DNA of 64,000 nucleotides. Origin: Heterodontus francisci. Its lineage: Eukaryota. Location: positions 24,986,001 through 25,050,000 of the forward strand of contig NC_090405.1 of NCBI RefSeq assembly GCF_036365525.1, written 5' to 3'. The stretch's first letter is position 1; every line of letters begins with the position of its first letter. This document shows positions 11,767-53,714 of the stretch, piece after piece. The notes under the pieces are model-generated. The model did not search any database, was not told the DNA's origin, and saw only the letters and a program-made list of their open reading frames with translations. The position numbers were made by a program, and so were the translations under genes.

Positions 11767-11803
11767 AGTTAACGTTTCGGGTCAGTGACCCTTCTTCGGA
11801 ACT
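11767..11803 (-). ncRNA. Minimal hammerhead-like motif (PLE 5' pseudo-LTR)
   Basis: Reverse complement of the 15678-15714 motif. Confidence 0.7.
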
Positions 11804-12429
11804 GACAAATATTAGAAAAGTCACAGATTATAAACAAGTGAGGTGGGGGTTGGGCAAGAGATAACAAAGGAGAAGGTGCAGATTGGACCAGGCCACATAG
11901 CTGACCAAAAGGTCACAGAGCAAAGGCAAACAATATGTTAATGGTGTTTTGAAAGACAAAGCATTAGTACAGATTAGGTGTGAATATACTGAATATAGAA
12001 CATCAGCAAGTGCAAACCTGAAGAAAAACAACCTGAAAAAAACAGTGGGTAAGCAAACTGAACAAACTAAGATGAAATGAAATAAATGCAAAAAATGTAA
12101 AAAGGAATGCAAAAAAAAGGAAGAAAAAATAACTAAAAATGACTAAAAATGAAAGTAAAGTGGGGGGCTGTCATGCTCTGAAATTATTGAACTCAATGTT
12201 CAGTCCGGCAGGCTGTAGTGTGCCTAATCGGTAGATGAGATGCTGTTCCTCGAGCTTGCGTTGATGTTCACTGGAACACTGCAGCAATCCCAGGACAGAG
12301 ATGTGAGCATGAGAGCAGGGGGGAGTGTTGAAATGGCAAGCAACCGGAAGCTCAGGGTCCTGCTTGCGGACTGAGCGGAGATGTTCCGCAAAGCGGTCAC
12401 CCAGTCTGCGCTTGGTCTCCCCAATGTAC

Positions 12430-13617
12430 ATCTGTTTAAAAAGGGAGTGAGGGATAGACCGAATAATTACAGGCCAGCCAGACTAACCTCAGTAGTGGGC
12501 AAATTATTGGAAACTATTCAGAGCGACAGGATAAACTGTCACTTAGAAAGGCACAGATAAATCAAGCATAGTCAGCATGGATTTGTTCTGGGAAGATCCT
12601 GTCTGACCAACTTGATTGAATTTTTTGAAGAAGTAACAAGGAAGATAGACGAGGGTCGTGCAGTTGATGTAGTCTGCATGGACGTAAACGTGCGGGTCAC
12701 GATCCAAGAAATTTGCAGATGACACAAAGATTGTCCATCTGGTAAATAGCATGGAGGATAGCTGTAGGCTGCAGAAAGATATTGATGATCTGGTCAGGTG
12801 GGCAGAAAAATGGCAAATGGAATTCAACCTGGAGAAGTGTGTGGTGAAGCATTCGGGGAGGTCAAACAAGGCAAAGGAAGACACGATTAATAAGAACATG
12901 CTGATAGGTGTAGAGAAAGTGAGGGACCTTGGAGCAAATGTCCGCAGATCCCTGAAGGTAGCAGGACAGGTCGATAATGTGGTCAGAAGGTATGTGGAAT
13001 CCTTTTCTTTATGAGCCGAGGTATAGTATATAAGAGCAGGGAGGTTGTGCTGTAACTGTATAAATCATTAGTCAGGCCACAACATGAGTACTGTGTGCAG
13101 TTGTGATCATCTCATTACAGAAAGGATGTAATTGCACTAGAGAGGGTACAGAGGAGATTTACGAGGATGTTGCCGGGACTGGAAAAATGCAGCTATGAGG
13201 AAAGATTGGATAGGCTGGGGCTGTTCTCCTTGGTACAGAGAAGACTGAAATGTACAAAATTTTGAGGGGTCTGGATAGAGTTGAGGTGAAGGGTCTATTC
13301 ACCTTAGCAGAGAGATCAGTGACTAGGGGCATAGATTTTAAGTGATTGGTAGAAAGGTTACAGGAGAGAAGAGGAAATGTTTTTTCAACCAGAGGGTGGT
13401 GAGGGTCTGGAACTCACTGCCTGAAAGGGGAGTTGAGACAGAAACCTTCAACTCATTCAAAAGGAGTCTGGATATGCACCTCAAATGCCATAATCTGCAG
13501 GGCTGCGGACCAAATGTTGGAAGGTGGGATTCGAATGGGTGGAATGTTTTTCATCTGGCACAGACACAATGGGCCAAGTGGCCTCTTTCTGTGCCTTCAA
13601 CTTTCTATGATTCTATA
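12430..13617 (+). mobile_element. CR1 LINE fragment with an internal RT deletion; mirror of 53715-54910
   Basis: RT and C-terminal motifs (WAEKWQMEFN, FFNQRVVRVWNSLP); tail TTCTATGATTCTAT. Confidence 0.88.
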
Positions 13618-14251
13618 AATTACCCAGCTGCTTTAGTGGAATTTGAACTCATGTCTTTGGACCATTCGTGGAGACTTCTGGATTACTCGTCCTGTAAAGT
13701 AACCACAAAATCACCATACCTCTGAGATTTTTTACTGGTTTGTAATGTGGATTTCAGTATACACAAATGGAATTGATAATCTGTTTCACTCTGATAATGT
13801 ATGAATTTTTTGACTGGTAAATAATATGTATCTCTGTCTTTGTATTTTTCAATTCCGCAGTCTGGATGAGTTCTGTACCGGCATCTAATTTATATCACAG
13901 TTTACACTTCATATCAGTTTTGCTCAATCTAATACTGTATGTGATTTTTGGATTGGCAATGTTTAGATCACGGTGTGGGTGAGTTCTGAACTAGTATCTA
14001 ATTTGTGTCTCAGGTTACAGTATCTTTCAGCACCTTTGAAGCTTTCACTGTAAAAAATGTTGGACTTATATGTCACTCAAGGTACACTATGGGGATATTT
14101 AAACATCCTTTATCATGGGTGTGAGCTTTGGGTATGGTATTTAATTTAAATATCAGGCTATATCATTAGGTCAGATTCTGTGCCATTCAATCAGTACCGT
14201 GGGCCAATTCTATCTGATATTTAATTGCTAGCTAAGTCTGCATTATATTTA

Positions 14252-15776
14252 ATAAAAGCAAAATACTGCGGATGCTGGAAATCTGAAACAAAAACAAGAA
14301 ATGCTGGATTCACTCAGCAGGTCTGGCAGCATCGACATGGTCCATCTCTGACACTTCCCTTCCCTTCCTCGACTTCTCTGTCTCCATCTCTGGGGATAGG
14401 TTGTCTACTAATATCCATTATAAGCCCACTGACTCCCACAGCTACCTCGACTACACTTCTTCACACCCTACCTCCTGTAAGGACTCCATTCCATTCTCCC
14501 AGTTTCTCCGTCTCCGACGCATCTGCTCTGATGATGCTACCTTCCATGACGGTGCTTCTGATATGACCTCCTTTTTCCTCAACCGAGGATTTCCCCCCAC
14601 TGTGGTTGACAGGGCCCTCAACCGTGTCCGACCCATTCCCCGCACCTCTACCCTCACCCCTTCCCCTCCCTCCCAGAACCGTGACAGGGTTCCCCTTGTC
14701 CTCACTTTTCATCCCACCAGCCTCCATATCCAAAGGATCATCCTCCGCCATTTTCGCCACCTCCAGCGTGATGCCACTACCAGTCGCATCTTCCCCTCCC
14801 TTCCCCTGTCAGCATTCCGAAGGGATCGTTCCCTCCGCGACACCCTGGTCCACTCCTCCATTACCCCCACCACCTCGTCCCCGTCCCAGGGCACCTTCCC
14901 TTGCAATCGCAGGAGGTGTAATACCTGCCCATTTACCTCCTCTCTCCTCAGTATCCCAGGCCCCAAACACTCCTTTCAGGTGAAGCAGCGATTTACTTGT
15001 ACTTCTTTCAATGTAGTATACTGTATTCGCTGCTCACAGTGTGGTCTCCTCTACATTGGGGAGACCAAGCGCAGACTGGGTGACCGCTTTGCGGAACATC
15101 TCCGCTCAGTCCGCAAGCAGGACCCTGAGCTTCCGGTTGCTTGCCATTTCAACACTCCCCCCTGCTCTCATGCTCACATCTCTGTCCTGGGATTGCTGCA
15201 GTGTTCCAGTGAACATCAACGCAAGCTCGAGGAACAGCATCTCATCTACCGATTAGGCACACTACAGCCTGCCGGACTGAACATTGAGTTCAATAATTTC
15301 AGAGCATGACAGCCCCCCACTTTACTTTCATTTTTAGTCATTTTTAGTTATTTTTTCTTCCTTTTTTTTTGCATTCCTTTTTACATTTTTTGCATTTATT
15401 TCATTTCATCTTAGTTTGTTCAGTTTGCTTACCCACTGTTTTTTTCAGGTTGTTTTTCTTCAGGTTTGCACTTGCTGATGTTCTATATTCAGTATATTCA
15501 CACCTAATCTGTACTAATGCTTTGTCTTTCAAAACACCATTAACATATTGTTTGCCTTTGCTCCGTGACCTTTTGGTCAGCTATGTGGCCTGGTCCAATC
15601 TGCACCTTCTCCTTTGTTATCTCTTGCCCAACCCCCACCTCACTTGTTTATAATCTGTGACTTTTCTAATATTTGTCAGTTCCGAAGAAGGGTCACTGAC
15701 CCGAAACGTTAACTCTGCTTCTCTTTCCACAGATGCTGCCAGACCTGCTGAGTGAATCCAGCATTTCTTGTTTTTG
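14252..15776 (+). mobile_element. 5'-truncated copy of the same PLE with a short inverted pseudo-LTR (14252-14332); 14-bp TSD
   Basis: 14333-15776 is near identical to the reverse complement of ~8400-9855. CTGCATTATATTTA occurs at 14238-14251 and 15777-15790. The paralogous empty site (~51951-51964, reverse) has one copy. Confidence 0.93.
15678..15714 (+). ncRNA. Minimal type I hammerhead ribozyme-like motif in PLE 3' UTR
   Basis: AGTT-CCGAAGA-A-GGGTC(ACT)GACCC-GAAA-CG-TT-AACT: stem I AGTT/AACT, core boxes, stem II hairpin, palindromic AACGTT stem III. Confidence 0.7.
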
Positions 15777-16302
15777 CTGCATTATATTTAGACTGACACA
15801 TTGCATTTCAATCTGCTAGTGGGTGTGATTTTGACCTGGGATTGAGGTATCTGACTGTCAATGGGACTGAATTGGGGTGAAATGGAAACAACCTCTTTCT
15901 CTCCTGCTTTGTTTGATTGTTGGATTGAAAATGTGCCTCTGGAACTTGGGATCAATGTGAGCCTGACTACTTCTGCAGTCTGAGACTAGGGACCTGATGA
16001 ACTGTCTGTGCCTCTGTACTCTGAGTGATAATGTACCTACTGTGTGAGAGAGGAGCTGGCTGCACAGTTCCTTGTGCCTCAAGTGCAGGAACCATCACAA
16101 TTCCTTCAAGTATCTGCCTGCATGAAGAAAAAGTATATCTTCTAACTCAAGAACAGATGCGGTGCAAAATATCAGATGAATTAAATTTCTCAATGAATAA
16201 TCATTAATAATAGCCACAAATGTAAACCAGTGTCAGTATTTGCCTCCACCGAAGTACTGAAGCTCCCAGCTCCTGCATCACAAGTGTTCTGGGCAGATCC
16301 AT

Positions 16303-19300
16303 AGAGTTATAGAGTCGTACAGCATAGAAACAGGCCCTTCAGCCCACCGCGTCCATGCCGACCATAATGCCCATCCATACTAATCACACCTGCCTGCATT
16401 AATTCCATATCCCTCTATGCCTTGCTCATTCAAGTACCTGTCCGGATGCCTCTTAAATGTTGCTACTGTTCCTGCCTCCACCACCACCTCAGGCAGCTCA
16501 TTCCAGATACCCACTACTCTTTGTGTGAAAAATTTACACCTTTGATCCTCTTTAAACCTCCTCCCTCTCACGTTAAATCTATGCCGTCTAGTTTTAGTCA
16601 CCCCTACCATGGGAAACAGACTCTGGCTATCCACCCACCTATGCCTCATAATTTTATATACCTCTATCATGTCCCCTCTCAGTCTCCTTCGCTCCACGGA
16701 AAACAGACCCAGCCTATCCAATCTCTCTTTATAACTCAAGCCCTCCAAACCAGGCAACATCCTTGTGAATCTTTTCTGCACCCTCTCTAGCTTAATCACA
16801 TCTTTCCTGTCGTGTGGCGACCAGAACTGCACACCGTACTCCAAATGCAGCCTAACCAACGTTATGTACAACTGTAACATGTTGTCCTAACTCTTGTACT
16901 CAATGCCTCAGTCGATGAAGTCAAGCATGCCATATGCCTTCTTCACCATCCTGTCTACCGGTGTTGCTACTTTCAGGGAACTATGTAGTTGCACCCCAAG
17001 GTCTCTCTGCTCAACAACACTCCCCAAGGCCCTGCCATTCACTATATATGTCCTGCCCTGGTTTAACTTCCCAAAATGCATCACTTGACACTTGTCTGCA
17101 TTAAATTCCATTTGCCAATCCCTTGCCCACTTTCCCAGTTTATCTATATCCTGTTGTAACCTTAGACAACCTTCTTCACTGTCCACCATACCACCAATTT
17201 TGGTGTCATCTGCAAACTTACTAATCATGCCCCCTACATTCACATCTAAGTCATTAATATATATGACAAACAGAGGGCAAAGCACCGATCCCTGCGGCAC
17301 ACCACTGGTCACCGGCCTCCGATCGGAAAAACAACCCTCCACTACCACCTTCTGCCTCCAATCACCAAGCCAATTTTGTATCCAATTTGCTAGCTTACCC
17401 TGGATCCCATGTGTTCGAACCTTCCGGACCAGCCTACCTTGCGGGGCCTTGCTAAAGTCCATGTAGAAAACGTCCATCGCTCTGCCCTCATCAATCCTCT
17501 TGGTCACCTCCTCGAGAAACTCAATCAAATTCATGAGACATGATTTCCCACGCACAAAGCCATGCTGACTATCCCTAATCAGACCATGCCTTTCCAAATG
17601 CATATAAATCCTGTCTCTCAGAATCCCTTTCAATAACTTTCCCTCCACTGATGTAAGGCTCACCGGCCTGCAGTTCCCTGGCTTATCCCTGCTGCCCTTC
17701 TAAAATAAAGGCACAACATCAGCTATCCTCCAGTCTTCCGGTACCTCAGCCGTGGCTAACGATGATACAAAAATCTCTGCCAGGGCCCCAGCAATCTCCT
17801 CCCTTGCTTCCCATAGCATCCTAGGATACACCTGGTCAGACCCTGAGGATTTATCCACCTTAATGCACTTCAAAACCTCCAACACCACCTCCTTTGTAAT
17901 GTTGATATGCTTCAGGATATCGCTGTTCCCTCGCTTGAACTCACTAGATTCCATGACCTTCTCCACGGTAAATACGGACGAAAAATATTCATTTAAGACC
18001 TCGCCCATTTCCTGTGGCTCCACACATAGATTGCCACACTGATCCTTAAGGGGACCTACTGTCTCCCTAGCTACCCTCTTACTCTTAATATACTTATCGA
18101 ATCTTTTAGGATTCTCCTTTATAATATCCAGGGAAATCTCATGGCCCCTTTTCAAAGAACAAAGAACAGTACAGCACAGGAACAGGCCATTCGGCCCTCC
18201 AAGCCTGCGCCGATCTTGATGCCTGCCTAAACTAAAACATTCTGCACTTCCGGGGACCGTATCCCTCTATTCCCTTCCTATTCATGTATTTGTCAAGATG
18301 CCTCTTAAATGTCGCTATCGTACCTGCTTCCACCACCTCCCCCGGCAGCAAGTTCCAGGCACTCACCAACCTCTGTGTAAAGAACTTGCCTCGCACATCC
18401 CCTCTAAACTTTGCCCCTCTCACCTTAAACCTATGTCCCCTAGTAACTGACTCTTCCACCCTGGGAAAGAGCTTCTGACTATCCACTCTGTCCATGCCGC
18501 TCATAACTTTGTAAACCTCTATCATGTCGCCCCTCCACCTCCGTCGTTCCAGTGAAAACAATGAGTTTATCCAACCTCTCCTCATAGCTAATGCCCTCCA
18601 GACCAGGCAACATCCTGGTAAACCTCTTCTGTACCCTCTCCAAAGCCTCCACGTCCTTCTGGTCGTGTGGCGACCCTCCTAATTTCCTATTTCCTTCTTA
18701 CGTGTAGTCCTACATCCCCGATACTCCTCGAGGGACTCACTCGATCCCAGCTGCCTATACCTGACATGTGCCTCCTTCTTTGTCCTGACCAGACCCTCAA
18801 TATCCCTCGTCAACCAAGGTTCCCTAAACTTGCCAGCCTTGCCCTTCCATCTAACAGGAACATGCTGGCCCTGAACTCTTCCTATCTCACTTTTAAAAGC
18901 CTCCCACTTGCCAGACGTCCCTTTACCTGTAAACAACCTCTCCCATTCAACTTTTGAGAGTTCCTGTCTGATGCCATCAAAATTAGCCTTCCCCCAATTT
19001 AGGGCTTCAACCTGAGGACCAGTCCTATCCTTTTCCATAACTGTCTTGAAGCTAATAGAGTTATGGTCACTGATCCCAAAGTGCTCCCCCACTGACACAT
19101 CAACCACCTGCCCATCCTCATTTCCAAAGAGGAGGTCGAGAGTAGCCCCTTCTCTCGTAGGGCCATCCACATACTGCTTCAGAAAACTATCCTGGACACA
19201 TTTAAAAAATTCTTCCCATCTGATCCCTTAGCACGAAGGCAGTCCCAGTCAATATGAGGGAAGTTAAAATCACCTACTATTACAACCCGATAATTCCTAC

Positions 19301-19686
19301 ACCTATCTGTGATTTCCCTACCTATATGCTCCTCCACTTCCCTCTGACTATTGGGGGGTCTATAGTATAATCCCATCAAAGGAATCACCCCTTTCTTATT
19401 TCTAAGTTCTACCCATATGGCCTCACTGGACATTCACCCCGGGATATCCTCTCTAAGTACTGCCGTGATGTCTTCCCTAATCAATAGTGCAACTCCCCCT
19501 CCTCTCTTACCTCCACCTCTGTCACACCGGAAGGATCGGTACCCCGGAACATTGAGCTGCCAGTCCTGCCCATCCCTCAACTACAATTCCGTAATAGCTA
19601 TAATATCACAATCCCATGTACCGATCCATGCTCTGAGTTCATCTGCCTTACCTGTAAGGCTTCTTGCATTAAAATAAATGCAGTTT
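16303..19686 (-). mobile_element. CR1 LINE (ORF2 EN+RT, decayed), probable TSD ATCCAT
   Basis: ORF fragments [36 protein letters not shown] at 16297-16302 and 19687-19692. Empty site at ~51425 in the other arm. Confidence 0.92.
18153..18672 (-). mobile_element. Nested 5'-truncated CR1 of a different subfamily
   Basis: A second CR1 C-terminus (RGDMIEVYK...FFTQR) with a GTTCTTT-repeat tail, interrupting the host CR1. Confidence 0.88.
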
Positions 19687-20049
19687 ATCCATCCAGACAA
19701 AACACTGCACTGGGATTGTTCCAACTGCTCTATGCTCTACATATATTTCCAACCATCTTGCTTCATATGAATGAAAGATAAATAAAGTCCGATATGTATA
19801 TCTCTCAATTCCTTTCTCCCCATACACTTGTTCCACCTTCCCTGCATCGATACTATTTGCCTCAACCTCTCCCTGTGATAGCAAATCCCAGCTTCTAACC
19901 ATTCACTACATAAATACATATTTCATGAATTCCTCATTGGTTTTATGAATGGCGATTTTATATTTTTGGCTCTTGTTTCAGACACCACCACAAAAGTAAA
20001 CATGCCTCCTTGTACTTTATAAAAGCCGTTCATTATTTCCTCACTTTTT

Positions 20050-21160
20050 GCATTTGTTCATGGGATGTAGGCATCACTGGCTATGCCAGCATTCATTGCC
20101 CATTCCAAATTTCCCTAAACAAAGTAGTAGTGAGCTGCCTTCTTGAGCCGCTGCAGTCCTTGAGATGTCGGAACACCAACAGTGCTGTTTGGAAGGGAGT
20201 TCCAGGATTTTTACCCAGCGACAATGAAGGAATGGCGATATAGTTCCAAGTCAGGATGGTTTGTGGCTTGCAGGGGAACTTGGTGTTCCCATGCATCTGC
20301 TACCCTTGTCCTTTTAGGTAGTAGAGGTTGCGGGTTTGGAAGGTGCTGTCGAAGGAGCGTTGGTGAGTTGCTGCAGTGCATCTTGTAGATGGTACACACT
20401 GCTGCCACTGTGCATCGGTGATGAATGTTGAAGGTGGCGGATGGGGGCAATCAAACAGGCTACTTGAGTGTTGTTGGAGCTGCACTTATCCAGACAAGTG
20501 GAGAGTATTGCATCACACTCCTGACTTGTGCCTTGTAAATGGTGGACAGGTGTGGGGAGACAGGAGGTGAGTTATTCGCCACAGAGTTCCTAGCCTCTGA
20601 CCTGCTGTTGTAGCCACAGCATTTATGTGGCTGGTCCAGTTCAGTTTCTGGTCAATGGTAACCTCCAGGATGTTGATGGTGGTGGATTCAGTGATGGTAA
20701 TGCCATTGATCATCAAGGAGAGATGATTAGATTCTCTCTTGTTTGAGATGGTCATTGCCTGGCACTTATGTGGCATGAATGTTACTGCCACTCATCAGCC
20801 CAAGCCTGGATGTTGACCAGGTCTTGCTGCATCTGATCATGGGCTATCTGAGGAGTCACGAATGGTGCTGAACATTGTGAATATCGCCACTTCTGGCCTT
20901 GTGATGGAGGGAAGGTCATTGCTGAAGCAGCTGAAGATGGTTGGGCCTAGAACACTAGCCTGAGGAACTCCAGCAGTAATGTGCTGTGACTGAGATGATT
21001 GACCTGAACAACCACAGCCATCTTCCTTTGTGCTAGGTCTGACTCCAACCAGCGGAGAGTTTTACTCCTGATTCCCATTTACTCTAGTTTTGCTCGGGCT
21101 CCATGGTACCATACACGGTCAAAGGCTGCCTTGATGTCAAAGGCAGTCACTCTCACCTCA
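20050..21160 (-). mobile_element. CR1/L2-group LINE of a second family, RT to 3' end; mirrored with an internal deletion at 50640-51060 (+)
   Basis: DIKAAFDRVWYHG; the mirror copy has LGPTIFSCFINDLP and FTDD. 3' end matches 4266-4437. Confidence 0.8.
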
Positions 21161-21179
21161 CAATGCAGTGTTGCTTTAA

Positions 21180-21320
21180 CCCTAAAACAAAAGCAAAATT
21201 CTGCAGCTGCTGGAAATTTGAAAAAAAAAACAAAAATGCTGCAAATACTCAGCCCTTCAGGCAGCAAATGTGGAGAGTGAAACACAATTAAGGTTTCAGG
21301 TCTGTGTCCTTTCATCTTAC
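21180..21320 (-). mobile_element. Old PLE-derived short element (degenerate hammerhead + 3' end); mirrored at 50480-50600 (+)
   Basis: Similarity to the PLE terminus (aaagcaaaat..gctggaaat..actcagc..ggcagca..tgtggagag). Confidence 0.7.
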
Positions 21321-21361
21321 GATATGTTTTATGTCCTGGTATGTAAGGTCAGGTGATAGGC

Positions 21362-22320
21362 GGGGTATAAAGAGTGGTGAGCCGAGGCCCGAGACCAGAA
21401 GCAGTGACAGTGTCGGTGGCGAGAGGAGCTGGGGTATAAAGAGCAGTGAGCCAAGGCCCGAGACCAGAAGCAGTGTCAGTGTCGGTGGCGAGAGGAGCTG
21501 GGGTATAAAGAGCAGTGAGCCGAGGCCCGAGACCAGAAGCAGTGACAGTGTCGGTGGCGAGAGGAGCTGGGGTATAAAGAGCGGTGAGCCGAGGCCCGAG
21601 ACCAGAAGCAGTGACAGTGTCGGTGGCGAGAGGAGCTGGGGTATAAAGAGCAGTGAGCCGAGGCCCGAGACCAGAAGCAGTGACAGTGTCGGTGGCGAGA
21701 GGAGCTGGGGTATAAAGAGCAGTGAGCCGAGGCCCGAGACCAGAAGCAGTGACAGTGTCGGTGCGAGAGGAGCTGGGGTATAAAGAGCAGTGAGCCGAGG
21801 CCCGAGACCAGAAGCAGTGACAGTGTCGGTGGCGAGAGGAGCTGGGGTCTAAAGAGCAGTGAGCCGAGGCCCGAGACCAGAAGCAGTGACAGTGTCGGTG
21901 CGAGAGGAGCTGGGGTATAAAGAGCAGTGAGCCGAGGCCCGAGACCAGAAGCAGTGACAGTGTCGGTGGCGAGAGGAGCTGGGGTATAAAGAGCAGTGAG
22001 CCGAGGCCCGAGACCAGAAGCAGTGACAGTGTCGGTGGCGAGAGGAGCTGGGGTATAAAGAGCAGTGAGCCGAGGCCCGAGACCAGAAGCAGTGACAGTG
22101 TCGGTGGCGAGAGGAGCTGGGGTATAAAGAGCAGTGAGCCGAGGCCCGAGACCAGAAGCAGTGACAGTGTCGGTGGCGAGAGGAGCTGGGGTATAAAGAG
22201 CAGCGAGCCGAAGCCCGAGACCAGAAGCAGTGACAGTGTCGGTGGCGAGAGGAGCTGGGGTATAAAGAGCAGCGAGCCGAGGCCCGAGACCAGAAGCAGT
22301 GACAGTGTCGGTGGCGAGAG
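21362..22320 (+). repeat. Tandem array of about 14 x 69-bp units (GGGGTATAAAGAGCAGTGAGCCGAGGCCCGAGACCAGAAGCAGTGACAGTGTCGGTGGCGAGAGGAGCT)
   Basis: Period 69 (21362, 21431, 21500...). Near-identical units, two of them 68 bp. Confidence 0.97.
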
Positions 22321-22420
22321 CTCTGTTCAGTTCTGTGGACTTGCTTGACCAGCAATAATTGAAGTGTGACATCACAGGAGAGCCGGTAAGTGATTGGTGG
22401 GTATTTCTTCCATGTCTCTG

Positions 22421-22759
22421 TTTTTTTTTAGATTAGAGATACAGCACTGAAACAGGCCCTTCGGCCCACCAAGTCTGTGCCGAACATCAACCACCCATTT
22501 ATACTAATCCTACACTAATCCCATATTCCCAACAAACATCCCCACCTGTCCCTATATTACCCTACCCCCTACCTATACTGGTGACAATTTATAATGGCCA
22601 ATTTACCTATCAACCTGCAAGTCTTTTGGCTTGTGGGAGGAAACCGGAGCAAACCCACGCAGACACAGGGAGAACTTGCAAACTCCACACAGGCAGTACC
22701 CGGAAGCGAACCCGGGTCCCTGGAGCTGTGAGGCTGCGGTGCTAACCACTGCGCCACCC
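22421..22759 (-). mobile_element. V-SINE (HE1-like) in CR1 5' UTR
   Basis: Same family sequence. Confidence 0.88.
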
Positions 22760-25700
22760 TTTTGGCCAAGTGATTTAAATCAGGAGATGTCATTACAGGT
22801 TAAGATTACACTTAAATGTTTTTTTTTAAATACTGCAATCCAAATTAATTCATTAAATAGAATAGAGATGGCTGGGCAGGCGATGTGTTACAGCTGTAGT
22901 ATGTGGGAGCTGGTGGACGCCGATGCAATCCACGGTGACCACATCTGCAGCAAGTGTTAGCTGATTGAGGAACTTCGGCTCAGAGTTGATGAGCTGGAGT
23001 CCAAGCTGTGGACACTGCGACGCATCAGGGAGGGGGAAAGCTACCTGGACACTGTTTCAGGAGACAGTCACACCCCTTAGATTAATTACATCCAATTTGG
23101 ACCATGGTCAGGGACAGGAGGGTGTGACTGCGAGTGAGGCAGGTATGGGGATCCAGAATTTAGCTTTGGAGGAGCCTCAGCCAGTGCCCTTATCCAATAG
23201 GTACGAGATTTTTGCTTCCAATGTGGATAAGGGCACAGGCTGCAGGGAGGATGAGTGAACTGACCACCCTGGTTCAGAGCACCATTCAAGTGGGGGAAGA
23301 AAAGAGGAATATTGCAGTCATAGTGGGTAGCATAGTTAGGGGAATAGATACTGTTCTCCACAGCAAAGATATAGAGAGTCCCGAAGATTGTGTTGCCTAC
23401 CTGGTGCCAAGGTTAAGGATATCTCTTCCGGGCTAGAGAGGAATTTGGAGTGGGAAGGAAAGGATCCAGTTGTTGTGATCCACGTAGATACCAATAACAT
23501 AGGTCGGACTAGAAAAGAGGTTCTGCTGAGGGACTATGAGCAGCTCGAGGCTAAATTAAAAAGCAGAACCACAAAGGTAATAATCTCCGGATTACTATCT
23601 GAGCCACGTGCAAATTGGCACAGGGTAAATAAGATTAGAGAGGTAAATGCGTGGCTCAAAGATTGGTGTGGGAGAAATGAGTTCTGATTCATGGGACACT
23701 GGCACCAGTACTGGAGAAAGAGAGAGCTGTTCCATTGGGATGGGCTGCACTTGAACCATGCTGGGACCAGTGTCCTGGCGAATCGTACAACTAGGCTTGT
23801 AGATAAGGCTTTAAACTAAATAGTGGGGGGGAGGGTTCAATTGAAGGGAGGTTTATAAAGTTGAAAAGTAACGAGAGAACAGAGGTGCAGGGTAGTGAAG
23901 GGGCATACATTAATCAGAGTGTGACCGGTAGGAACAGAGAATACAAGCATAAGAGTACAGCAGAAATTAGAACTAGAATAGGTAAAAATGGGAATAAGTC
24001 ATAGCCTTAGGCTCTTTATCTGAATGCACATCGCATTTGTAACAAGATAGATGAGCTGACGGCACAGAGAGAAATAAATGAATATGATTTGATAGCTATC
24101 ACTGAGACGTGGTTGCAGGATGACCAGGACTGGAATCTCAATGTTCAAGGATATTCGACGTTCCGGAAGAATAGGCAGAAAGGAAAAGGAGGTGGGGTAG
24201 CTTTGTTGTTAAAGGAAGGGATCAGTGTTGTTGTGAGGAATGATATAGGTGTAATAGATGGTGATGTAGAATCAGTTTGGGTGGAAATAAGGAATAGCAA
24301 GGGGAAGAAATCACGGATGGGAATGGTCTAGAGGCCCCTGAGGAGTTGCGCCTCTGTAGGACAAAATATTAATCAGGAAATAATGGAGGCGTGTAAGAAG
24401 AACACTGCAATTATCGTGGGTGATTTTAATCTTCATATAGACTGGACAAATCAAATTGGCAAGGGTAGCATGGAAGACGAATTTGTAGAGTGCATCAGGG
24501 ATTGTTTCTTAGAACAATACATTGCAGAACCTACCCGGGAACAGGCTATTTTAGACTTGGTAATGTGTAATGAGGTAGGATTAATAAGATATCTCGTAGT
24601 TAAGGATCCTCTAGGGGGAAGTGATCATAACATGGTAGAATTTCAAATTCAGTTTGAGGGTGAGCAACTGGGGTCTCAAACCAATGTCTTCAACTTAAAC
24701 AAGGGCAATTACAGAGATAGGAAGAATGAGTTGTCTAAAGCAGGCTGGGAAAATAGACTACGAGGGAAGTCAGTCGATGAGCAGTGGCAGACTTTTAAGC
24801 AGATATTTCATAACACTCAGCAAACATTTATTCCGGTCAGAAGGAAGGACTCGAGGAAAACGATGAACCATCCGTGGATAACAAAGCAAGTTAAGGAGAG
24901 TATCAAATCAAAAGCAAAGGCATACAAAGCAGCAAAAGCTAGTACTAGGCCAGAGGAATGGGAATTTTTTAGAAACCAGCAGTGCATGACTAAAAAACGA
25001 ATAAAGAGAGAAAATTGATTGAGAGTAAATTGGCAAGAAATATAAAAACAAACAGCAAGAGCTCGGGGGCCGATAGACCACTCCAATGCGTGATTTCTTT
25101 CCCTTGCTATTCCTTATTTCCACCCAAACTGATTTTACATCACCATCTATTACACCGATATCATTACTCACAACTGCACTGATCCCTTCCTTTAATAACA
25201 AAGCTACCCCACCTCCTTTTCCTTTCTCCCTATTCTTCCGGAATATCGAATATCCTTGAACATAAAAAGGAAAAGTACATGTGGGACCCTTAGAGGATGA
25301 GACTGGGGAATAAATAACATGGAACAGGGGAATGGCAGATAATTTAAGCCAATATTTTGCATCGGTCTTCACGGTGGAAGACACTATAAACATCCCAACA
25401 ATAATAGATGAGCAAGGTGTAAATGGGAGGGAGGAACTTGTAACAATCTCTATCACGAGGGAAAAGGTGCTGGACAAACTGATGGGACTAAAGACAGACA
25501 AGTCGCCAAGACCTGATGGCCTCCATCCAAGGGTTTTAAAAGAAGTGGCTGCAGAGATAGTAGGGGCATTGGTCATAATATACCAAAATTCACTGGATTC
25601 CAGTAGGGTGTCAGCGGATTGGAAAACCGCTAATGTGACGCCCTTATTCAAGAAAGGAGGGAGACAGAAGGCAGGAAACGATAGACCAATTAGCTTAACA

Positions 25701-28548
25701 TCTGTCATTGGGAAAATGCTAGAGTCCAATATTGAGGAAGAAATAGCAGGACATTTAGAAAAACATAATGCAATCAAACAGAGTCAACATGGTTTTATGA
25801 AAGGGAAATCATGTTTGATAAACTTGTTAGAGCTTTTTGAGGATATAACAAGCAGAGTGGATAAAGGGGAACCAGTAGATGTAGTGTATTTGGATTTTCA
25901 GAAGGCGTTCACTAAGGTGCCACATAAAAGGTTATTGCACAAAATAGGAGCTCAGGGTATTGGGGGTAATGTGTTAGCATGGATTGAGGATTGGCTAACA
26001 CACAGAAGGCAGAGTGTCGGGATTAATGGGTCTTTTTCAGGTTGGAAAGCCGTATTTAGTGGGGTGCCACAAGGATCAGTCCTCGGGCCTCAACTATTTA
26101 CTATCTATATTAATGACTTGGAGGAAGGGACAGAGTGTAGAGTATCCAAATTTGCTGACGATACAAAAATAGGTGGAAAGGCATGTTGTGATGATGACAC
26201 AAAGAAACTGTAAAGGGATATGTTAAGTGAGTGGGCAAAAACTTGGCAGATGGAGTTCAATGTGGGAAAGTGTGAGGTAATCCACTTTGGCAGGAAGAAC
26301 AAAAAGGCAGATTATTATTTAGATGGAGAAAAACTACAAAATTCAAAATGCAGTTCAGAGGGATCTGGGTGTTCTTCTGCAGGAAACACAAAGTTAGCAT
26401 GCAGGTGTAGCAAATAATTAGGAAGGCAAATGGAATTTTGGCCTTTATTGCTAGCGGGTGAGAGTTTAAAAATAGGAAAGTCTTATTACAACTGTACAGG
26501 GTGTTGGTGAGGCCACACGTGGAGTACTGCGTACAGTTTTGGTCACTGCATTTAAGGAAGGATATCCTAGCATTGGAGGCAGTTCAGAAAAGGTTCACTA
26601 GGCTGATTCCTGGAATGCAGGGGTTGTCTTATCAAGAACAGAATGAGAGGTGATCTTATTGAAACAAATAAGATTCTAAGGGGGCTTGACAGGGTAGATG
26701 TTGAGAATATATTTCCACTGGTGGGGGAATCTCGAACTAGGGGACATTGTTACAGAATAAGGGGGCACACATTTAAAACTGAGATGTGTATGAATTTTTT
26801 CTCTGAGGGTGGTGAATCTCTGGAATTCTCTACCTCAGAGAGTTGTGGAGGCTAGGTCACTAAATGTATTTAAGGAGGTGGTAGATAGATTTTTGAAATC
26901 TCAGGGAGTGGAGGGTTAAGCGGAGCAGGCCCAAAAGAGGAGTTGAGGCATGGGAGAGATCAACCATGATCTTATTGAATGGCGGGCCAGGCTTGAGGGG
27001 CTGAATGGCCTACTCCTCCTCCTACTTGTGCTCAGTTTGCAGTAATGGAAGACTATGTCTTCCATTTTTACCATTTATGAGTTTTGTGGAGTAGTGTGTA
27101 ACATGTAGCTCAGTCTGCAGTCTTACATTATTGAGATTAATTCTGTACTTTACAATCAGGTCCTGTTTGTCTTTCCCATCTGACATAGAATTTGAAGTTC
27201 AGGCTGCACTCTTGTGAGAATGACACAGTGCCTTGCAATCTGATAGTGGGTGTGATTTTGTGCGGAGATTGATGTATCTACCTGGGACAGAGTTGGGGTG
27301 AAATGGAAACAACCTCAGTCTGTCCTGCGTGACTGTTGGATTGAATAAATGTGTCTGGAACTTGGGATCAGTGCCGGTCTGACTACGTTTGCTGTCGGTG
27401 ATTGTGGAACTGATGTCTCTGCTCTCTGTGAGTTGATACTGTACTGACTGTGTGTGAGGAGCTGGCTGCACTTCCCCTTGTGTCGAGGAATCACTACACT
27501 TATTCTACTTCCTTCAAGTATTTGGCTGTAGAAAGGAAAATATTTATTATAATTCAGGAAGATGTGTGGTAGAAGATACAAATGTGACCAAAACAATTTT
27601 TCAATTAATAATCATTATGAACAATCACAAAGGAAACCCAGCAATGTAAACAGAGTCAGTGTCTGATTCCACTGCAGTCCTGCAGCCCCCAGCTACTGCA
27701 TACCAGGGGCTTTGGCCATTTTACAACAATTAAATGACATCCAGAAACAATCCACTGGGCCATGAATGGGACTGACCGACGGAGCAGGGACTTTTACACA
27801 GGTCAGATTTCCAGTTCCCGCTCCCATGGTCTAACCGTTCAAGCGAAACCAAACAGCCGCTGTTTAAAATGTGTCCTTCACACTTCTCACCTGGTGCCTA
27901 TAATAGATTCTCTTTGTGTAACTCCCCACATCCCACTGTCCAATAACAAACTATGGGATTAGACTGGATTGCTGCCTTTGCATTGGTGTGGATACGATGG
28001 GCCAAATGGCCTAATTCTGTGCTGGAACTTTTTGATGTTTCTGTTTGGTGAATTCTTGCAGAAATCTGCGCCTGCGCTCCCCTCCCCCATCTACCTGTCA
28101 TGGGGCAGTGCAATGGTTAAAGAATGGAGGGTTTCACCAACTGGATGGTGACGTATATTTAATATAACAGTGACGTGCTGTCTACTACACCACAGAGCCA
28201 TTCACAGACAAAGCCCAACCACCAGCTCCTTCTCTCACACAGGACGTACATTATCACACACACAGCGCAGAGACACAGACAGGTTATCAGTTCCACAGTC
28301 TCAGACAGCAGAAATCGTTCCAGAGACACATTTTCAATCCATCAATCAAACAGAGCAGGAGAGACAGACGTTGTTTCCATGTCACCACAACTCAGTACCA
28401 CTGACAGGTAGATACATAAATCCCAGTCCAAATTCTCTATCAAATTATCAGTGTGTCAATCCCACAATATTGCAAGCGAATAATGCAAGGCTGGATTTCA
28501 TCTATTTTAACGCAAGGCGTCTTACAAGTAAGGCAGATGAATTGAGGG

Positions 28549-35068: not shown

Positions 35069-35315
35069 TGAAATATCCTTCCTGATTGCAGGAAGGGTGT
35101 TTGTGATTGGTTGCAAATATTTATTCTGATTGGATGGGGAAAAACACCAATTAGAGAATTACAGTAAAAAAACCTTTATGACATCACTCCCAATCACCCA
35201 ATCACAATCTTTACTTTCCCCCCATCCCTCATTAGCATAGAGCTGTGGGATTGTCTATTTAATCCGCACTCGGAAGGGGTTTGGTTTATTTCTGTGTCTG
35301 AAATTGAATCTGAAG
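35069..35315 (+). promoter_or_regulatory. H2B copy 1 promoter
   Basis: Several CCAAT/ATTGG boxes (about 35106, 35129, 35147, 35190, 35198), TGACATCA (~35179), octamer-like ATTAGCAT (35231) and TATTTAA (~35256). Confidence 0.8.
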
Positions 35316-35693
35316 ATGGTTGAGGAGAAGAAGAAAACAGCTGCTAAGAAGGGCGCCAAGAAAACTGTGAGTAAACCGTCAGCAAAGGGCGGCAAGAGGC
35401 GGAGAAAGTCGAGGAAGGAGAGTTACTCCATCTACATCTACAAAGTGATGAAGCAGGTTCACCCCGACACCGGCATCTCCTCCAAGGCCATGAGCATCAT
35501 GAACTCGTTTGTGAACGATATTTTCGAGCGCATCGCGGGTGAGGCTTCCCGCCTGGCCCATTACAACAAGCGCAGCACCATCAGCTCCCGGGAGATCCAG
35601 ACCGCCGTGCGCCTGCTGCTGCCCGGGGAGCTGGCCAAGCACGCCGTGTCGGAAGGGACAAAGGCGGTGACCAAGTACACCAGCTCCAAGTAA
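35316..35693 (+). CDS. H2B: Histone H2B, replication-dependent, 125 aa ([12 protein letters not shown]...KYTSSK)
   Basis: Canonical H2B core ([25 protein letters not shown]...[13 protein letters not shown]). True ATG is at 35316; the ORF track start at 35304 is TTG. Intronless, with a downstream stem-loop. Confidence 0.98.
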
Positions 35694-35730
35694 AACTGCA
35701 CAATGGACTGAAAAACAGATCAAACACAAC

Positions 35731-35771
35731 GGCTCTTTTAAGAGCCACCCACAATCTCTCTGAAAAAGCTG
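35731..35771 (+). terminator. Histone 3' stem-loop and purine-rich downstream element (U7 site) of H2B copy 1
   Basis: GGCTCTTTTAAGAGCC at 35731-35746, then ACCCA, then GAAAAAGCTG. Confidence 0.95.
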
Positions 35772-36339
35772 CATCCGACATCTCCATTAAATTATTTTAA
35801 AACCATGTATAACATAATAACGTTCCCACTGCTGTTCCTGTGTCTCCTGTCCCATAAACTGTACACGGACACATAATCCGGTCGTCCGCCTTCGCTTTTT
35901 TGCTTAAAGCTGTTATTATGGCACAGCTCCTGAATGACTGCATTAACAGCTGTTTTTAGCTGCAACGGTCAGACCTCAGTCCCTTCACTCTATTCCTGAA
36001 ATGTGAACTAATTCATCGTTTTATTCACAGCAACTCGCCGGAACAGGAACAGAGCAGATTAAGCAGATCCGGCTTCCTCTTTTCAGAGAAGGACACTGGG
36101 CTCTGATTGAAGACTAAACTGAGTGTTTTCCTTCAGGGAAATGCTGTGAACAGGGATTTATTCCCACCTGGAACAGTTTGTGATTGGTGACGGAAAGAAT
36201 AGAATAAAACAAAAAAAAGAGAAGGGATTTGAAATCTTTGACTAAGGATGACATTTATTTTAATCCGCTCTTTTCCGGAAATGAAATTGGCGGGCTTTGT
36301 GAAATTGACAAATTCTCTGCTTCTGGTCGTGTGGCGGGT

Positions 36340-36887
<548 letters not shown>

Positions 36888-36917
36888 AGCGGCCATAATG
36901 TCATCCAATAAACCAAA

Positions 36918-36958
36918 GGCTCTTTTCAGAGCCACCCACAGTCTCTGTGAAAGGGCTG
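36918..36958 (+). terminator. Histone stem-loop and downstream element of H2A
   Basis: GGCTCTTTTCAGAGCC at 36918-36933, then ACCCA, then GAAAGGGCTG. Confidence 0.95.
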
Positions 36959-37683
36959 GTTACTGTCAGGAGGGAATCAGAGATGGAGTTATTGTAACAG
37001 TGGATTGACCTGTTTCGCATACAGACAGTTTGAATTCTGTTTTTTTTCTCTCTCCGGCTTCTCAATGAGAATTTGCTCCCGGAACAGAGTAAATGCAGGA
37101 AGGAAGAGGCCATTCTCGGGCTGTGTGTTTCTCTCCTAACCTGATCTGTTTAGACCGCACTGTTCCCAGAGGACGGAATCTGAGAGTTGCTCACACACGG
37201 GAGCTGAGTCCATTGCAGCGCTTTAATATGTGCCTTCCCCCCGGCCCTCCGTATTCTCCGGACACAAAGCTGTCTAATCCCCCGGCGGCGGGAGAGTCGG
37301 GGATTCTCTCCCCGCAGTGTCAGGGTTTGCAACCCTGGGCAACTGGCGGTTCGAGTCAGTGACCGAGCTGCCTCACCTGTCCTGTGTACCGATTTCCAAG
37401 GGATTCAACTATTAGCGAACTCATTGGGTAATGTTTGTAAATAACCCTCATGTGAACGGAGCTGGCTCCATTAATTCCTTCCAAATAAAACTGGGATCTA
37501 TTTATTTTCCCCAAATGTCAGCTAACGGATCCCAGGAGCAGGGTTGAGATTGTGCTGAACAGCAATGAGTCTCCGGTAATGCTGCTTTCTAAATTCCAGA
37601 TCAGCTCTCAGTCTTCCAGGCCTTTACCAGAAACCATGTGGCCGCCCCTCCAATCTAATGGGTTTGATGATGAACAGAGATGG

Positions 37684-37724
37684 CAGCTCTTTCCTTTGCT
37701 GATTTGGTGGCTCTGAAAAGAGCC
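37684..37724 (-). terminator. Histone stem-loop and downstream element of H3
   Basis: Reverse complement of 37709-37724 is GGCTCTTTTCAGAGCC, followed by ACCAA and GGAAAGAGCTG. Confidence 0.95.
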
Positions 37725-37753
37725 CTTGTTACACTTGTTACTGAAGCCGGGTT

Positions 37754-38221
<468 letters not shown>

Positions 38222-39121
38222 TCACATCCACCTTTTTAAACTCTGTGAGGAACCGCCCTGAGCAGTAATTGGCTGGAACCCGACACCCAGTCAGTTTAAA
38301 CCAAACTCCGATAATGAACAGAAACACAGGAAACTGTTGGCTCCGATTGGCCGATTATTACTGATACATCAATTTTTTAAAAACCGCCAATATCAGTGCC
38401 GGAAACAACGGTTTTGACAAAGGAAAAATTTGCTTTAATTCATCTTATGAACATGATCAGAACATTTCAATGATATTTGTCAGCAAAGATCTTTTACAGC
38501 AAAGATTTTAAACTCTTTCTCTTGTATTATTCTACACTTTGTCACAAGTTCCAGACACACATTTCCAATCCGGTATCTATTCGGGTTTATTCTCCGTCCT
38601 TTTTGAAACAGTCTGTAAGCGGAGGCAGAAAGTCTCATTCACAGCATTCTGCAAGCGGATACATTTCAGATCAATCTTTGTCAAGATACCGCATCACTGA
38701 TTCTAGATTGAACCTATTTGTGGGAGACAAAAGCGGAGAGAAGATTTTTACTGTCAGGTGTTGAAATGTGAGACTGAGGGTTCCTACAACAGCGGGGTTT
38801 CCAGATAATGTACTTATTAATTATTGAGGCCAAGCTTGAACAAGGGAAACAAGTGACTGAGAACTGATGTGTCAGCTTTTATTAACGGAATACAGGAAAG
38901 GGGCCGAATATGAACGCGTCCGAAATCAAAGCGCACTTGGGTCAGTGGTCAGTAATTAATTTACACAGCATTATTAAGTAGAGACACAAAGATCTCACAG
39001 ACAGTGAAAGTGAATTACTCACATATAGCTGGGATAAAACAGATCACAAAGGCAATTAGAAAGTTCCAGACTTTTCATATATAAAAAACAAAACAACCCG
39101 ATACCATAGAGATGAAGTTGT

Positions 39122-39161
39122 AGCTTTTTCAGAGAGATTGTGGGTGGCTCTTAAAAGAGCC
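39122..39161 (-). terminator. Histone stem-loop and downstream element of H2B copy 2
   Basis: Reverse complement of 39146-39161 is GGCTCTTTTAAGAGCC, followed by ACCCA and GAAAAAGCTA. Confidence 0.95.
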
Positions 39162-39198
39162 GTTGTGTTTGGGATGTTTTTCAGTCCATTGTGCAGTT

Positions 39199-39576
39199 TT
39201 ACTTGGAGCTGGTGTACTTGGTCACCGCCTTTGTCCCTTCCGACACGGCGTGCTTGGCCAGCTCCCCGGGCAGCAGCAGGCGCACGGCGGTCTGGATCTC
39301 CCGGGAGCTGATGGTGCTGCGCTTGTTGTAATGGGCCAGGCGGGAAGCCTCACCCGCGATGCGCTCGAAAATATCGTTCACAAACGAGTTCATGATGCTC
39401 ATGGCCTTGGAGGAGATGCCGGTGTCGGGGTGAACCTGCTTCATCACTTTGTAGATGTAGATGGAGTAACTCTCCTTCCTCGACTTTCTCCGCTTCTTGC
39501 CGCCCTTTGCTGACGGTTTACTCACAGTTTTCTTGGCGCCCTTCTTAGCAGCTGCTTTCTTCTTCTCCTCAACCAT
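39199..39576 (-). CDS. H2B: Histone H2B copy 2, 125 aa ([12 protein letters not shown]...KYTSSK)
   Basis: Inverted near-identical copy of 35316-35693. ATG is CAT at 39574-39576. Confidence 0.98.
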
Positions 39577-39823
39577 CTTCAGTTTCAATTTCAGACACAG
39601 AAATAAACCAAACCCCTTCCGAGTGCGGATTAAATAGACAATCCCACAGCTCTATGCTAATGAGGGATGGGGGAAAGTAAAGATTGTGATTGGATGATTG
39701 GGAGTGATGTCATAAAGGTTTTTTTACTGTAATTCTCTAATTGGTGTTTTTCCCCATCCAATCAGAATAAATATTTGCAACCAATCACAAACACCCTTCC
39801 TGCAATCAGGAAGGATATTTCAT
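39577..39823 (-). promoter_or_regulatory. H2B copy 2 promoter
   Basis: Reverse complement of 35069-35315 with about 2 substitutions. Confidence 0.8.
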
Positions 39824-49108: not shown

Positions 49109-49363
49109 ACTCACTCCATGTTCCGGGACCTGTTCCTGCTCCATTCCACCTCTTACAAACAGCCCCCGCCTCCCCCTGAACTTGCCCCGGACTCGATGCT
49201 GATCTCTGAGTCCATCTGCGGACACGCTCCCAAAGCGATGTGCTGCTGGAAGGAGGCTGCTGTTTGCTCCCTTTCCCCGGGACTGGGATCTCTCCATTCG
49301 CGGCTGTTTTAAACCATCTCCTTCCGCTCACAGGCGGTGCTGGGGGAGGGGAGCGCAGGCGCA
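49109..49363 (-). promoter_or_regulatory. Inverted copy of the CpG promoter / candidate first exon
   Basis: Same motifs; ATGGA|GTGAGT at 49119-49109. Confidence 0.55.
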
Positions 49364-52009
49364 GATTTCTGCAACAATTCAGCAAACAGAAACATGGAAA
49401 ATTTCCGGCGCAGAATGAGGCCATTCGGCCTATCGTGTCCGCGCCAGCGCAAAGAGAGCGATTCAGCCTCATCCCACAGTTTCTTGTTATTGGACAGTGA
49501 AGTGTGGAAACAGAAGCGGACAGTCAGGATGTGGGGAGTTACACAAAGAGAATCTATTATAGGCACCAGGTGAGAAGTGTGAAGGACACATTTTAAACAG
49601 CGGCTGTTTGGTTTCGCTTGAACGGTTAGACCATGGGAGCGGGAACTGGAAATCTGACCTGTGTAAAAGTCCCTGTTCCGTCGGTCAGTCCCATTCATGG
49701 CCCAGTGGATTGTTTCTGGATGTCATTTAATTGTTGTAAAATGGCCAAAGCCCCTGGTATGCAGTAGCTGGGGGCTGCAGGACTGCAGTGGAATCAGACA
49801 CTGACTCTGTTTGTGTTGCTGGGTTTCCTTTGTGATTGTTCACAATGATTATTCATTGAAAAATTGTTTTGGTCACTTTTGTATCTTCTACTACATCTCT
49901 TCCTGAATTATAATAAATACTTTTTTCTTTCCATAGGCAAATACTTGAAGGAAGCAGAATAAATGTAGTGATTCCTCGACACAAGGGGAAGTGAAGCCAG
50001 CTCCTCACACACAGTAAGTACAGTATCAACTCACAGAGAGCAGAGACATCAGTTCCACAATTACCGACAGCAGAAGTAGTCAGACCGGCATTGATCCCAA
50101 GTTCCAGAAACATTTATTCAATCCAACAGTCACTCAGAGCAGGAAAGACTGAAGTTGTCTCCATTTCACCCCAACTGACCAGTAGATACATCAATCCCAG
50201 TCCAAAATCACACCCACTATCAGATTGCAAGGCACTGTGTCACTCTCACAAGTGTGCAGCCTGAACTACAAATTCAATGTCAGATACAGCAGACAAACAG
50301 AACCTGATTGTAAAGTACAGAATTTATCCCAATAATGTACCCAGACTGCAGACTGAGCTCCATGTTACACACCACTCCACAAATCTCACAAATAGTCAGA
50401 GTGGAAGACACAGTATTAATTCCATTACTGCAAACTGAATGAACCTGACCATTACATACCAGGACATAAAACATATTGTAAGATGAAAGGACACAGACGT
50501 GAAATGTTAATTCTGTTTCTCTCTCCACATACGCTGCCTGAACTGCTAAGTATTTCCAGCAATTTTGTTTTTTTTAATTTCAGATTTGCAGCATCTGCAG
50601 AATTTTGCTTTTATTTTAGAGTTAAAGAAACATTGCCTTGTGAGGTGAGAGTGACTGCCCTTGATATCAAGGCAGCTATTGACCATGTATGGCATCAAGG
50701 AGCCCAAGCAAAACTGGAGTAAATGGGAATCGGGCAAAACTCTCTGCTGGTTGGAGTCATGCCTAGCACAAAGGAAGATGGCTGTGGTTGTTCAGGTCAA
50801 TCATCTCAGTCTCAGGACATTACAGCTGGAATTCCTCAGGCTCATGTTCTAGGCCCAACCATCTTCAGCTGCTTCATCAATGACCTTCCCTCCATCACAA
50901 GGCTGAAAGTGGAGATGTTCACTGATGATTGTGCAATGTTCAGCACCATTCATGACTCCTCAGATACTGAAGCAGCCCGTGCCCAGATGCAGCAAGACCT
51001 GGACAACATCCAGGCTTAGGCTGATAAGTGGCAAGTAACATTCACGTCACATAACAAATGAAAAAAGTGAGGAAATACTGAAGGGCTTTTATGGAATACA
51101 CGGAGACATGTTTCCACTTGTGGTGGTGTCTGAAACAAGAGCCAAAAATATAAAATCATCATTCCTAAAGCCAATGAGGAATTCATGAAAATTGTATTTA
51201 CGCAGTGAATGGATAGAATCTGGAATTTTCTATCACATGGAGAGATTGAGGTGATGCACTTAAGGGGAGGTGGAACAAGTGAGCAAGTGTATGGGGAGAA
51301 ATGAATTGAGCAATATACATATCAGGCTTTATTTTTCTTTATTTGTGCAAATGATGCAGGATGGCTGGAAATATTGTGTAGAGCATAGAGCAGTTGGGAC
51401 GATCCCAGTGCAGTGTTTTGTCTGGATGGATCTGCCCAGAATACATGTGATGCAGGAGCTGGGAGCTTCAGTACTTCAGTGGAGGCAGATACTGACACGG
51501 GTTTTCAATTGTGTGTGTTCTTAATAATTATTAATTCAGAAAGTAAATTCACATCTTTGATATTTTGCACCTCACCTGTTCTTGAGTTATGAGATGTATT
51601 TTTTCTTCATACAGGCAAATACTTGAAGATATTGTGATGAATGTGATGGTTGCTGCACTCGAGGCACAAGGAACAGTGCAGCCAGCTCCTCTCACACACA
51701 GTAGGTACATTATCACTCAGAGTACAGAGGTACAGATGGTTCATCAATTCCCTAGTCTCAGACTGTAGAAGTAGTCAGGCCCACATGGATCCCAAGTTCC
51801 AGAAACACATTTTCAATCCAACAATCAAACAAAGCAGGAGAGAAAGAAGTTGTTTCCATTTCGCCCCAATTCAGTCCCACTGATAGTCAGATACATCAAT
51901 CCCAGGTCAAAATCACACCCACTAGCAGATTGAAATACAATGTGTCAATCTAAATATAATGCAGACTTAGCTAGCAATTAAATATCAGATAGAATTGGTA
52001 CACGTTACT

Positions 52010-53712: not shown

Positions 53713-53714
53713 AT

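Follow-up and report, generated by a model that had tools for sequence, protein, structure and literature searches.

Tandem TATA-containing monomers as predicted promoter units heading a CR1 LINE family in Heterodontus francisci

Introduction

How could a LINE keep TATA boxes that lie upstream of its own transcription start? LINEs are commonly said to have internal promoters without a TATA box, since a box ahead of the start would be lost on copying, and in a TATA-box core promoter the start lies about 30 nt past the box. The question is raised by a CR1 insertion in the stretch of Heterodontus francisci DNA analysed here (contig NC_090405.1, 24,986,001 to 25,050,000, 64,000 nt; hereafter the window), in which a tandem array of TATA-containing units stands before the 5' UTR and ORF1. 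The original prediction took this array for a self-regenerating monomeric promoter, by analogy with rodent L1 and Drosophila HeT-A. In this study, we describe the array, its relatives elsewhere in the genome and the 5' ends of individual copies, and we argue that each monomer is probably a TATA-box core promoter, as predicted from sequence, which would be spent on copying while the array regrows in DNA.

Results

The array is part of a CR1 insertion

TRF describes the array (21362-22320) with a period of 69, 13.9 copies, 98% matches and a score of 1841; the unit list comprises 14 units, two of them 68 bp long. TATAAAG is present in 13 units, which read GGGGTATAAAGAG, the exception being the unit at 21844 (reading GGGGTCTAAAGAG). 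CpG density is 5.9 per 100 nt in array units versus 1.8 in ORF1. The earlier description of about 14 near-identical, CpG-rich 69-bp units thus holds as to array, likeness and CpG content, and its statement that the motif occurs in each unit has to be corrected to 13 of 14. The features of the locus are listed in Table 1.

Table 1. Features of the CR1 insertion and its surroundings in the window
Feature	Position	Strand
5' junction of insertion, some 10 nt short of the first TATA box; a few bases that differ from the monomer	21355..21361	+
Array of 14 monomers, 69 bp; TATAAAG in 13; predicted start at A of CCAGAAG, 31 nt past the first T	21362..22320	+
Unique 5' UTR, part one; common to a second CR1 lineage up to the CTTCC junction near 22410	22321..22420	+
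SINE inserted later, of a kind found many times in the window; missing from most paralogues	22421..22757	-
Unique 5' UTR, part two	22758..22867	+
ORF1, broken; cysteine-rich N-terminus, coiled-coil-like stretch (by eye), SGNH/GDSL esterase-like part	22868..23819	+
ORF2, broken; APE endonuclease and RT; inside it an inverted 202-bp copy (25062-25263) of 24141-24342	23820..26900	+
CR1 3' end, common to other copies; no target-site duplication	26901..27032	+
Old inverted paralogue of both flanks, i.e. the empty site	49341..51054	-
Histone genes H2B, H2A, H3, H2B with 3' stem-loops; context in segmental duplication, outside the element	35241..39651	.

An inverted arm elsewhere in the window aligns with the left flank of the insertion (20766-21354 to 51054-50443, 86%) and with the right flank (27032-28089 to 50438-49341, 89%). 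It represents the empty site, reads GGTCAGGTTCATTCAGTTTGCAG and contains neither the array nor a CR1. Since this old paralogue of the flanks lacks both, the array belongs to the 21355-27032 insertion, as had been proposed. Elements of the CR1 clade have no poly(A) and short or no target-site duplications. Comparison with the empty arm agrees with this habit, as the 3' junction has no poly(A) and no target-site duplication was found at the insertion junctions. The Pfam domains of ORF2 all score above the cut-off (Exo_endo_phos, E 3e-6; Exo_endo_phos_2, E 5e-9; RVT_1, E 9e-25). A 114-aa piece of ORF1 matches Lipase_GDSL_2 with E 4e-4, which is under the curated Pfam cut-off and weak, yet of the kind expected of CR1. 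From its architecture and its likeness to known elements, we tentatively take the element to be CR1 rather than L2; in the accessible part of a survey of the group, an esterase-type ORF1 is a criterion for the CR1 clade (PMC13343379).

All ORFs of the window copy are broken. A 337-bp SINE splits its UTR between array and ORF1 and is found only here and in two near-identical paralogues, and the inverted 202-bp copy of an upstream ORF2 segment, which has taken the place of part of ORF2, occurs in all paralogues and in no independent copies. The 5' end lies about 10 nt before a TATA box and is thus off the +30 peak of the family (see below), for which reason the window copy is likely to be 5'-truncated.

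Related monomers head other CR1 copies across the genome

A degenerate monomer motif has 1041 matches in the genome versus 0 for the control, most of them expected inside the segmental duplication described below. We sampled 58 loci, i.e. 50 places among the matches listed for the monomer motif and 8 from a UTR motif; one (L128) was discarded as a chance motif match. Outside the duplication, UTR and ORF1 follow directly 3' of the monomer motif in 54 of 57 loci, and the other three are interrupted or deleted, with a CR1 body further on. These 57 loci hold 1-24 units with locus-specific periods (about 49-95 bp). Most of their bodies share 85-91% identity with the window copy, and their flanks differ, apart from one local duplicate pair. 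The array is therefore a real, family-wide feature, namely the 5' head of a CR1 family with an esterase-type ORF1, and the predicted tie between the monomer and CR1 5' ends, with variable copy number, is borne out across the genome.

In a UTR-anchored sample (66 copies on contigs C1-C4, among the matches listed), 0, 1, 2, 3, 4, 7 and 19 boxes are present in 8, 37, 9, 7, 3, 1 and 1 copies, respectively. Over 102 UTR-anchored loci, 50 have one TATA box and 15 none; four of these 15 start, by eye, at the expected place. Among 296 boxes TATAAA was counted in 138 and GATAAA in 84, the latter number weighing against the boxes as TATA promoters. Direct repeats lie on both sides of the box even in one-box copies. 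Arrays of three to four boxes (16 loci) show a unit-unit divergence of 0.10, close to the 0.12 that is twice the body divergence. Such short arrays are as old as their elements and were hence inserted as arrays, having come through RNA. Of 12 longer arrays, 8 have a body that is older than the nearest unit.

Two further arrangements were observed upstream of the UTR. Three TATA-less copies (L167, L249, L250) carry a GC tract expanded into a 12-15 bp minisatellite. Three other loci (L191, L209, L274) have in common one further upstream sequence, joined just past the position of the box, which amounts to another chimeric head.

5' ends are phased relative to the missing upstream box

In mouse L1, the 5' truncation profile has been used as a mark of the parent's start and checked against CAGE, according to the accessible part of PMC6454616. 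For the CR1 family, the distance of each 5' end was measured from the position where the next upstream (missing) box would be. From 116 loci, 90 were scored (the others lacked a box in 9 cases or a reference in 6, had a different monomer type in 10 or duplicated another locus in 1). Ends fell 25-36 nt past the virtual box in 25 of 48 loci with their own units as reference, compared with 97 of 600 simulated random cuts (p 6e-8), and in 23 of 42 loci with a library reference, compared with 68 of 400 (p 2e-7); as the copies share ancestry, perhaps from few source elements, these p-values and those below overstate independence and are upper estimates of strength. The pooled discovery set gives 48 of 90 versus 16-17% in simulated cuts, for an interval derived from the known TATA spacing but chosen after a first look at the data. 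Only 8 of 90 ends lie at 0-19 nt (313 of 1000 simulated cuts). About half of all ends fall outside the 25-36 interval, and the remaining ends trail downstream, as expected of short truncations.

The interval was fixed in writing before hold-out loci were scored. Of 37 such loci, 24 were scored (8 without a box, 3 of another type and 2 without a reference were dropped), and 11 of 24 ends lay at 25-36 nt (p 1e-3). In the pooled data 25 of 107 ends lie at +29 to +31, which is the peak. As an indirect, genomic counterpart of the start mapping first proposed, many DNA 5' ends thus lie about 30 nt past the position of a TATA box. Boundary calls came within 3 nt in only 62-76% of simulations; a first boundary method (58/106 versus 45/146) suffered from register ambiguity and is superseded by the one used here.

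The length of the spacer offers a second line of evidence. Relative to the A of CCAGAAG, the median 5' end is +4 for spacers of 23-27 nt (n=47) and -0.5 for spacers of 30-33 nt (n=30), a shift with p 0.006 (narrower windows, p 8e-4 and 3e-4). This comparison is made in landmark coordinates and replaces a partly circular comparison of distances within a 20-40 window. As spacers lengthen, the ends change their offset from CCAGAAG, and it is the box, not the landmark, that they follow. A second monomer type (TTTAAAAAG) has 8 of 14 ends in the interval versus 43 of 300 cuts (p 4e-4; 18 loci, 4 of them without a box, all already seen before the test). Two further head types gave 4 of 14 phased ends (p 0.09) and 0 of 4. 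The pile-up of DNA 5' ends at +29 to +31 is hence a property of two monomer types and is weak or absent in the two others.

The phasing could be read differently. The promoter might be internal and free of erosion, consisting of the first 40-55 nt with an A/T box downstream of the initiator, so that a one-box copy would start at its own 5' end and extra units would be optional enhancers as in mouse L1. The predominance of one-box copies and the rarity of TATA-less ones are in line with such a promoter, and so are the findings that mouse monomers function without TATA boxes (PMC7778262) and that a second mouse monomer increases activity (PMC9022269), both taken from the accessible parts of these papers. 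We nevertheless regard it as unlikely, because the distance from the 5' end to the next box varies (about 38 nt where units measure 68 bp, 53 nt where they measure 83 bp) whereas that from the missing upstream box is fixed, because the offset from CCAGAAG changes with spacer length and because the same spacing recurs in the second monomer type.

Less probable still is that the ends mark a reverse transcriptase stop, or a preference of the 5' junction, in a G+C-rich tract with the A/T box being incidental. Compared with shuffles, three window units show slightly better folding (z -2.0), and many ends trail downstream into the GC tract, as such a stop would have it. Yet among eight monomer variants folded, no common stem ending at +25 to +36 was found by eye, most of the pairing predicted joins one unit to another and varies among the variants, the second monomer type, which is purine-rich, shows similar phasing, and a shift with spacer length is unexpected from a stop fixed by sequence.

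Other monomer types and heads shared between lineages

Pairwise alignment scores of the four monomer types are reached by 3-91 of 200 shuffles, which suggests that the types are related remotely at most. Each of these barely alignable types has an A/T box.

For 22 of the 66 copies anchored on the UTR, DNA comparison found no match to the ORF1 of the window family. They are not a non-autonomous derivative, a possibility that we considered and rejected, and belong to another, younger CR1 lineage (about 93-96% alike) with an ORF1 36% identical over 231 aa. In 20 of 21 copies a single junction at CTTCC joins the UTR of the window family to the second lineage's own 95-bp TATAAAG monomer unit. Among 23 new loci anchored on the second lineage, 3 have the head of the window family and 4 a third head (74-81 bp units with TTTAAAAA); the remaining 16 show their own monomer or truncation. 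Judged from these junctions, a distant CR1 lineage has captured the head of the window family, and heads are shared between lineages.

Copies of the second lineage (L140, L145, L147, L150 and 18 more; L219-L248) bear at least three interchangeable monomer heads, which are stacked in chimeric copies. Several GGTAAG motifs resembling splice donors are found in its UTR.

The array of the window grew within a segmental duplication

The exact 69-mer of the window has 985 matches in the genome (40 of 57 candidates scored). At 32 places with this 69-mer (23 taken first and 9 of 10 further ones), the flanks were compared with those of the window copy and found to be common at 97-100% identity, on the left in 32 of 32 and on the right in 30 of 32 (two not reached). 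The top matches are consequently not independent transpositions; the same flanks mark one insertion multiplied by segmental duplication. The duplication exceeds 75 kb, includes the H2B, H2A, H3 and H2B genes (no H4 or H1 motif was found in the window) and is present in at least 33 copies of 97-100% identity (window 12425-64000; L031-L076, L136-L138, L198). Its copies are megabase-spaced, in both orientations, on contigs C35 and C28 and on many scaffolds. A 42-kb element with inverted ends was considered and discarded, as likeness between other copies continues beyond both presumed ends.

Among the paralogues of the window insertion, the number of units ranges from 13 to 91 with a median of 22 (31 copies with the array wholly inside the sequence taken; five stretches were incomplete). 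One dead insertion with 13-91 units among its paralogues implies that the array grew again in DNA. In the window, mean unit-unit divergence is 0.018 versus 0.065 for ORF1 from the family majority. The array is indeed more homogeneous than the decayed ORFs, as first noticed, and this uniformity results from DNA growth after insertion and not from recent transposition. The window array thus grew after insertion, while the segmental duplication with the histone genes multiplied it. This is at odds with the self-regenerating design originally envisaged: the design erodes itself, and regrowth is a DNA-level change after insertion that is not part of retrotransposition.

That the arrays are no more than neutral minisatellites, which arose from a small duplication in the CR1 5' end and expanded at random after insertion with no role in transcription, is scarcely credible: growth in a dead copy, periods that differ by locus (about 49-95 bp) and the three TATA-less copies with expanded GC repeats are what it would lead one to expect, but short arrays have the age of their elements, 5' ends are phased, an A/T box recurs in each of four barely alignable monomer types and the head was taken over by a distant lineage.

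Discussion

We thus favour monomers that are predicted TATA-box promoters, spent on copying and regrown in DNA. RNA would start about 30 nt downstream of the box of the firing unit, so that no monomers but those following this unit would pass to a new copy, and each round would cost at least one box. As only downstream monomers would be kept, daughters would hold fewer boxes than their parent. This loss would be offset by changes in array length in genomic DNA after insertion, likely through slippage or unequal exchange; a one-box copy could regrow via the direct repeats flanking its box, and later rounds would draw on copies whose arrays have regrown. Promoter activity, a role of the TATA box in it and the feeding of new rounds by regrown arrays are what we infer from the phasing of 5' ends and the growth after insertion.

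The box counts are a difficulty for this reading: one-box copies (50/102) far outnumber box-less ones (15/102), and equal firing of every unit would yield at least as many TATA-less copies. An extra rule is hence needed, and candidates are dominance of the upstream box in two-box parents, a unit downstream being indispensable, or arrays shrinking to a single unit and staying there.

On balance, and with less assurance than for the single monomer, we lean towards a more general picture of CR1 LINEs in cartilaginous fishes: faced with the need for a promoter within their RNA, they would stack ordinary upstream TATA promoters, use up one of them in each generation and replenish the stack as the minisatellite grows in DNA, with several barely related monomers in one genome and heads swapped between lineages that are 36% identical in ORF1. 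If true, a family that relies on upstream boxes and persists through array regrowth links the survival of a retrotransposon to minisatellite dynamics.

Of the two parallels originally drawn, mouse L1 is the closer and HeT-A the looser. Drosophila HeT-A has its promoter upstream of the start, in the 3' end of the complete element that precedes it in tandem at telomeres. The CR1 copies described here, unlike this relay promoter, are single dispersed insertions with the monomer at the 5' end only. Haas et al. reportedly described, in 2001, chicken CR1 subfamilies with different 5' UTRs, the likeness being in 5' end replacement in CR1. Tandem A-modules occur in TRE5-A of Dictyostelium. The 200-bp 5' A-module of TRE5-A has promoter activity, in likeness to the 5' module predicted here to be a promoter, and TATA is unmentioned in the accessible main text (PMC3159450).

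The closest known system is that of the mouse L1 monomer promoters. As far as the accessible parts of the relevant papers go (PMC6454616, PMC7778262, PMC9022269, PMC5381506), L1Md A, Gf and Tf likewise have CpG-rich monomers repeated in tandem ahead of a unique tether and of ORF1. The number of monomers varies and is very high in rare cases, 5' ends keep a phase relative to the monomer, unequal crossing-over is a proposed origin of long arrays, and heads have been exchanged between lineages. The differences, within the same limits, are that the element is CR1 and not L1, that units measure 50-95 bp here and about 200 in mouse, that the predicted start lies about 30 nt past a TATA-like box whereas L1 ends lie near YY1 or AP-1 sites, that loss of the firing box would be obligatory here, and that the mode is one box here compared with mouse means of about 3 monomers. 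In the accessible part of PMC7778262, TATA boxes are said to be absent from L1 promoters; as the present element is moreover of CR1 type, it is not a member of the mouse-L1 type of monomer promoter.

The mechanism by which mouse L1 monomers are replenished is called unclear in the accessible part of PMC6454616. The window insertion, copied at least 33 times by segmental duplication, has an array that goes from 13 to 91 units without retrotransposition and therefore bears on this issue. Frequent 5' UTR replacement in L1 has been regarded as mostly mammalian, as stated in the accessible part of PMC5381506; head capture between distant CR1 lineages suggests that promoter replacement is not limited to mammalian L1. 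The 60-80 bp units are of a size that suits simple reporter tests.

In the CR1 group, repeated subunits of variable number near the 5' UTR have been described (PMC13343379). In the accessible part of that source they are confined to ORF1-less elements with 1-5 units of 100-500 bp, whereas ORF1 is present here and units are shorter; the words promoter, TATA and tandem have no occurrence in the accessible main text of this 2026 vertebrate CR1-group survey. CR1, promoter, TATA and monomer likewise do not occur in the main text of a shark genome preprint (10.1101/2025.06.08.657570), and in a search of openly accessible papers no account of arrayed TATA monomers in a CR1 was found.

The surroundings of the insertion have features of their own. 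Window 12425-28089 and 49341-54915 form an old inverted duplication with arms 82-89% identical, which encloses the histone genes and contains later insertions. Degenerate 45-46 bp tandem repeats lie on either side of the histone region (550-2800 and 39982-46300). On the minus strand, 8881-11655 holds an intact 924-aa ORF which by eye resembles a Penelope-type RT with GIY-YIG endonuclease, with partial copies of 97-99% identity nearby (11660-12428, 14335-15776 and 40900-41305); as this ORF is missing from the compared paralogues, it is a recent insertion.
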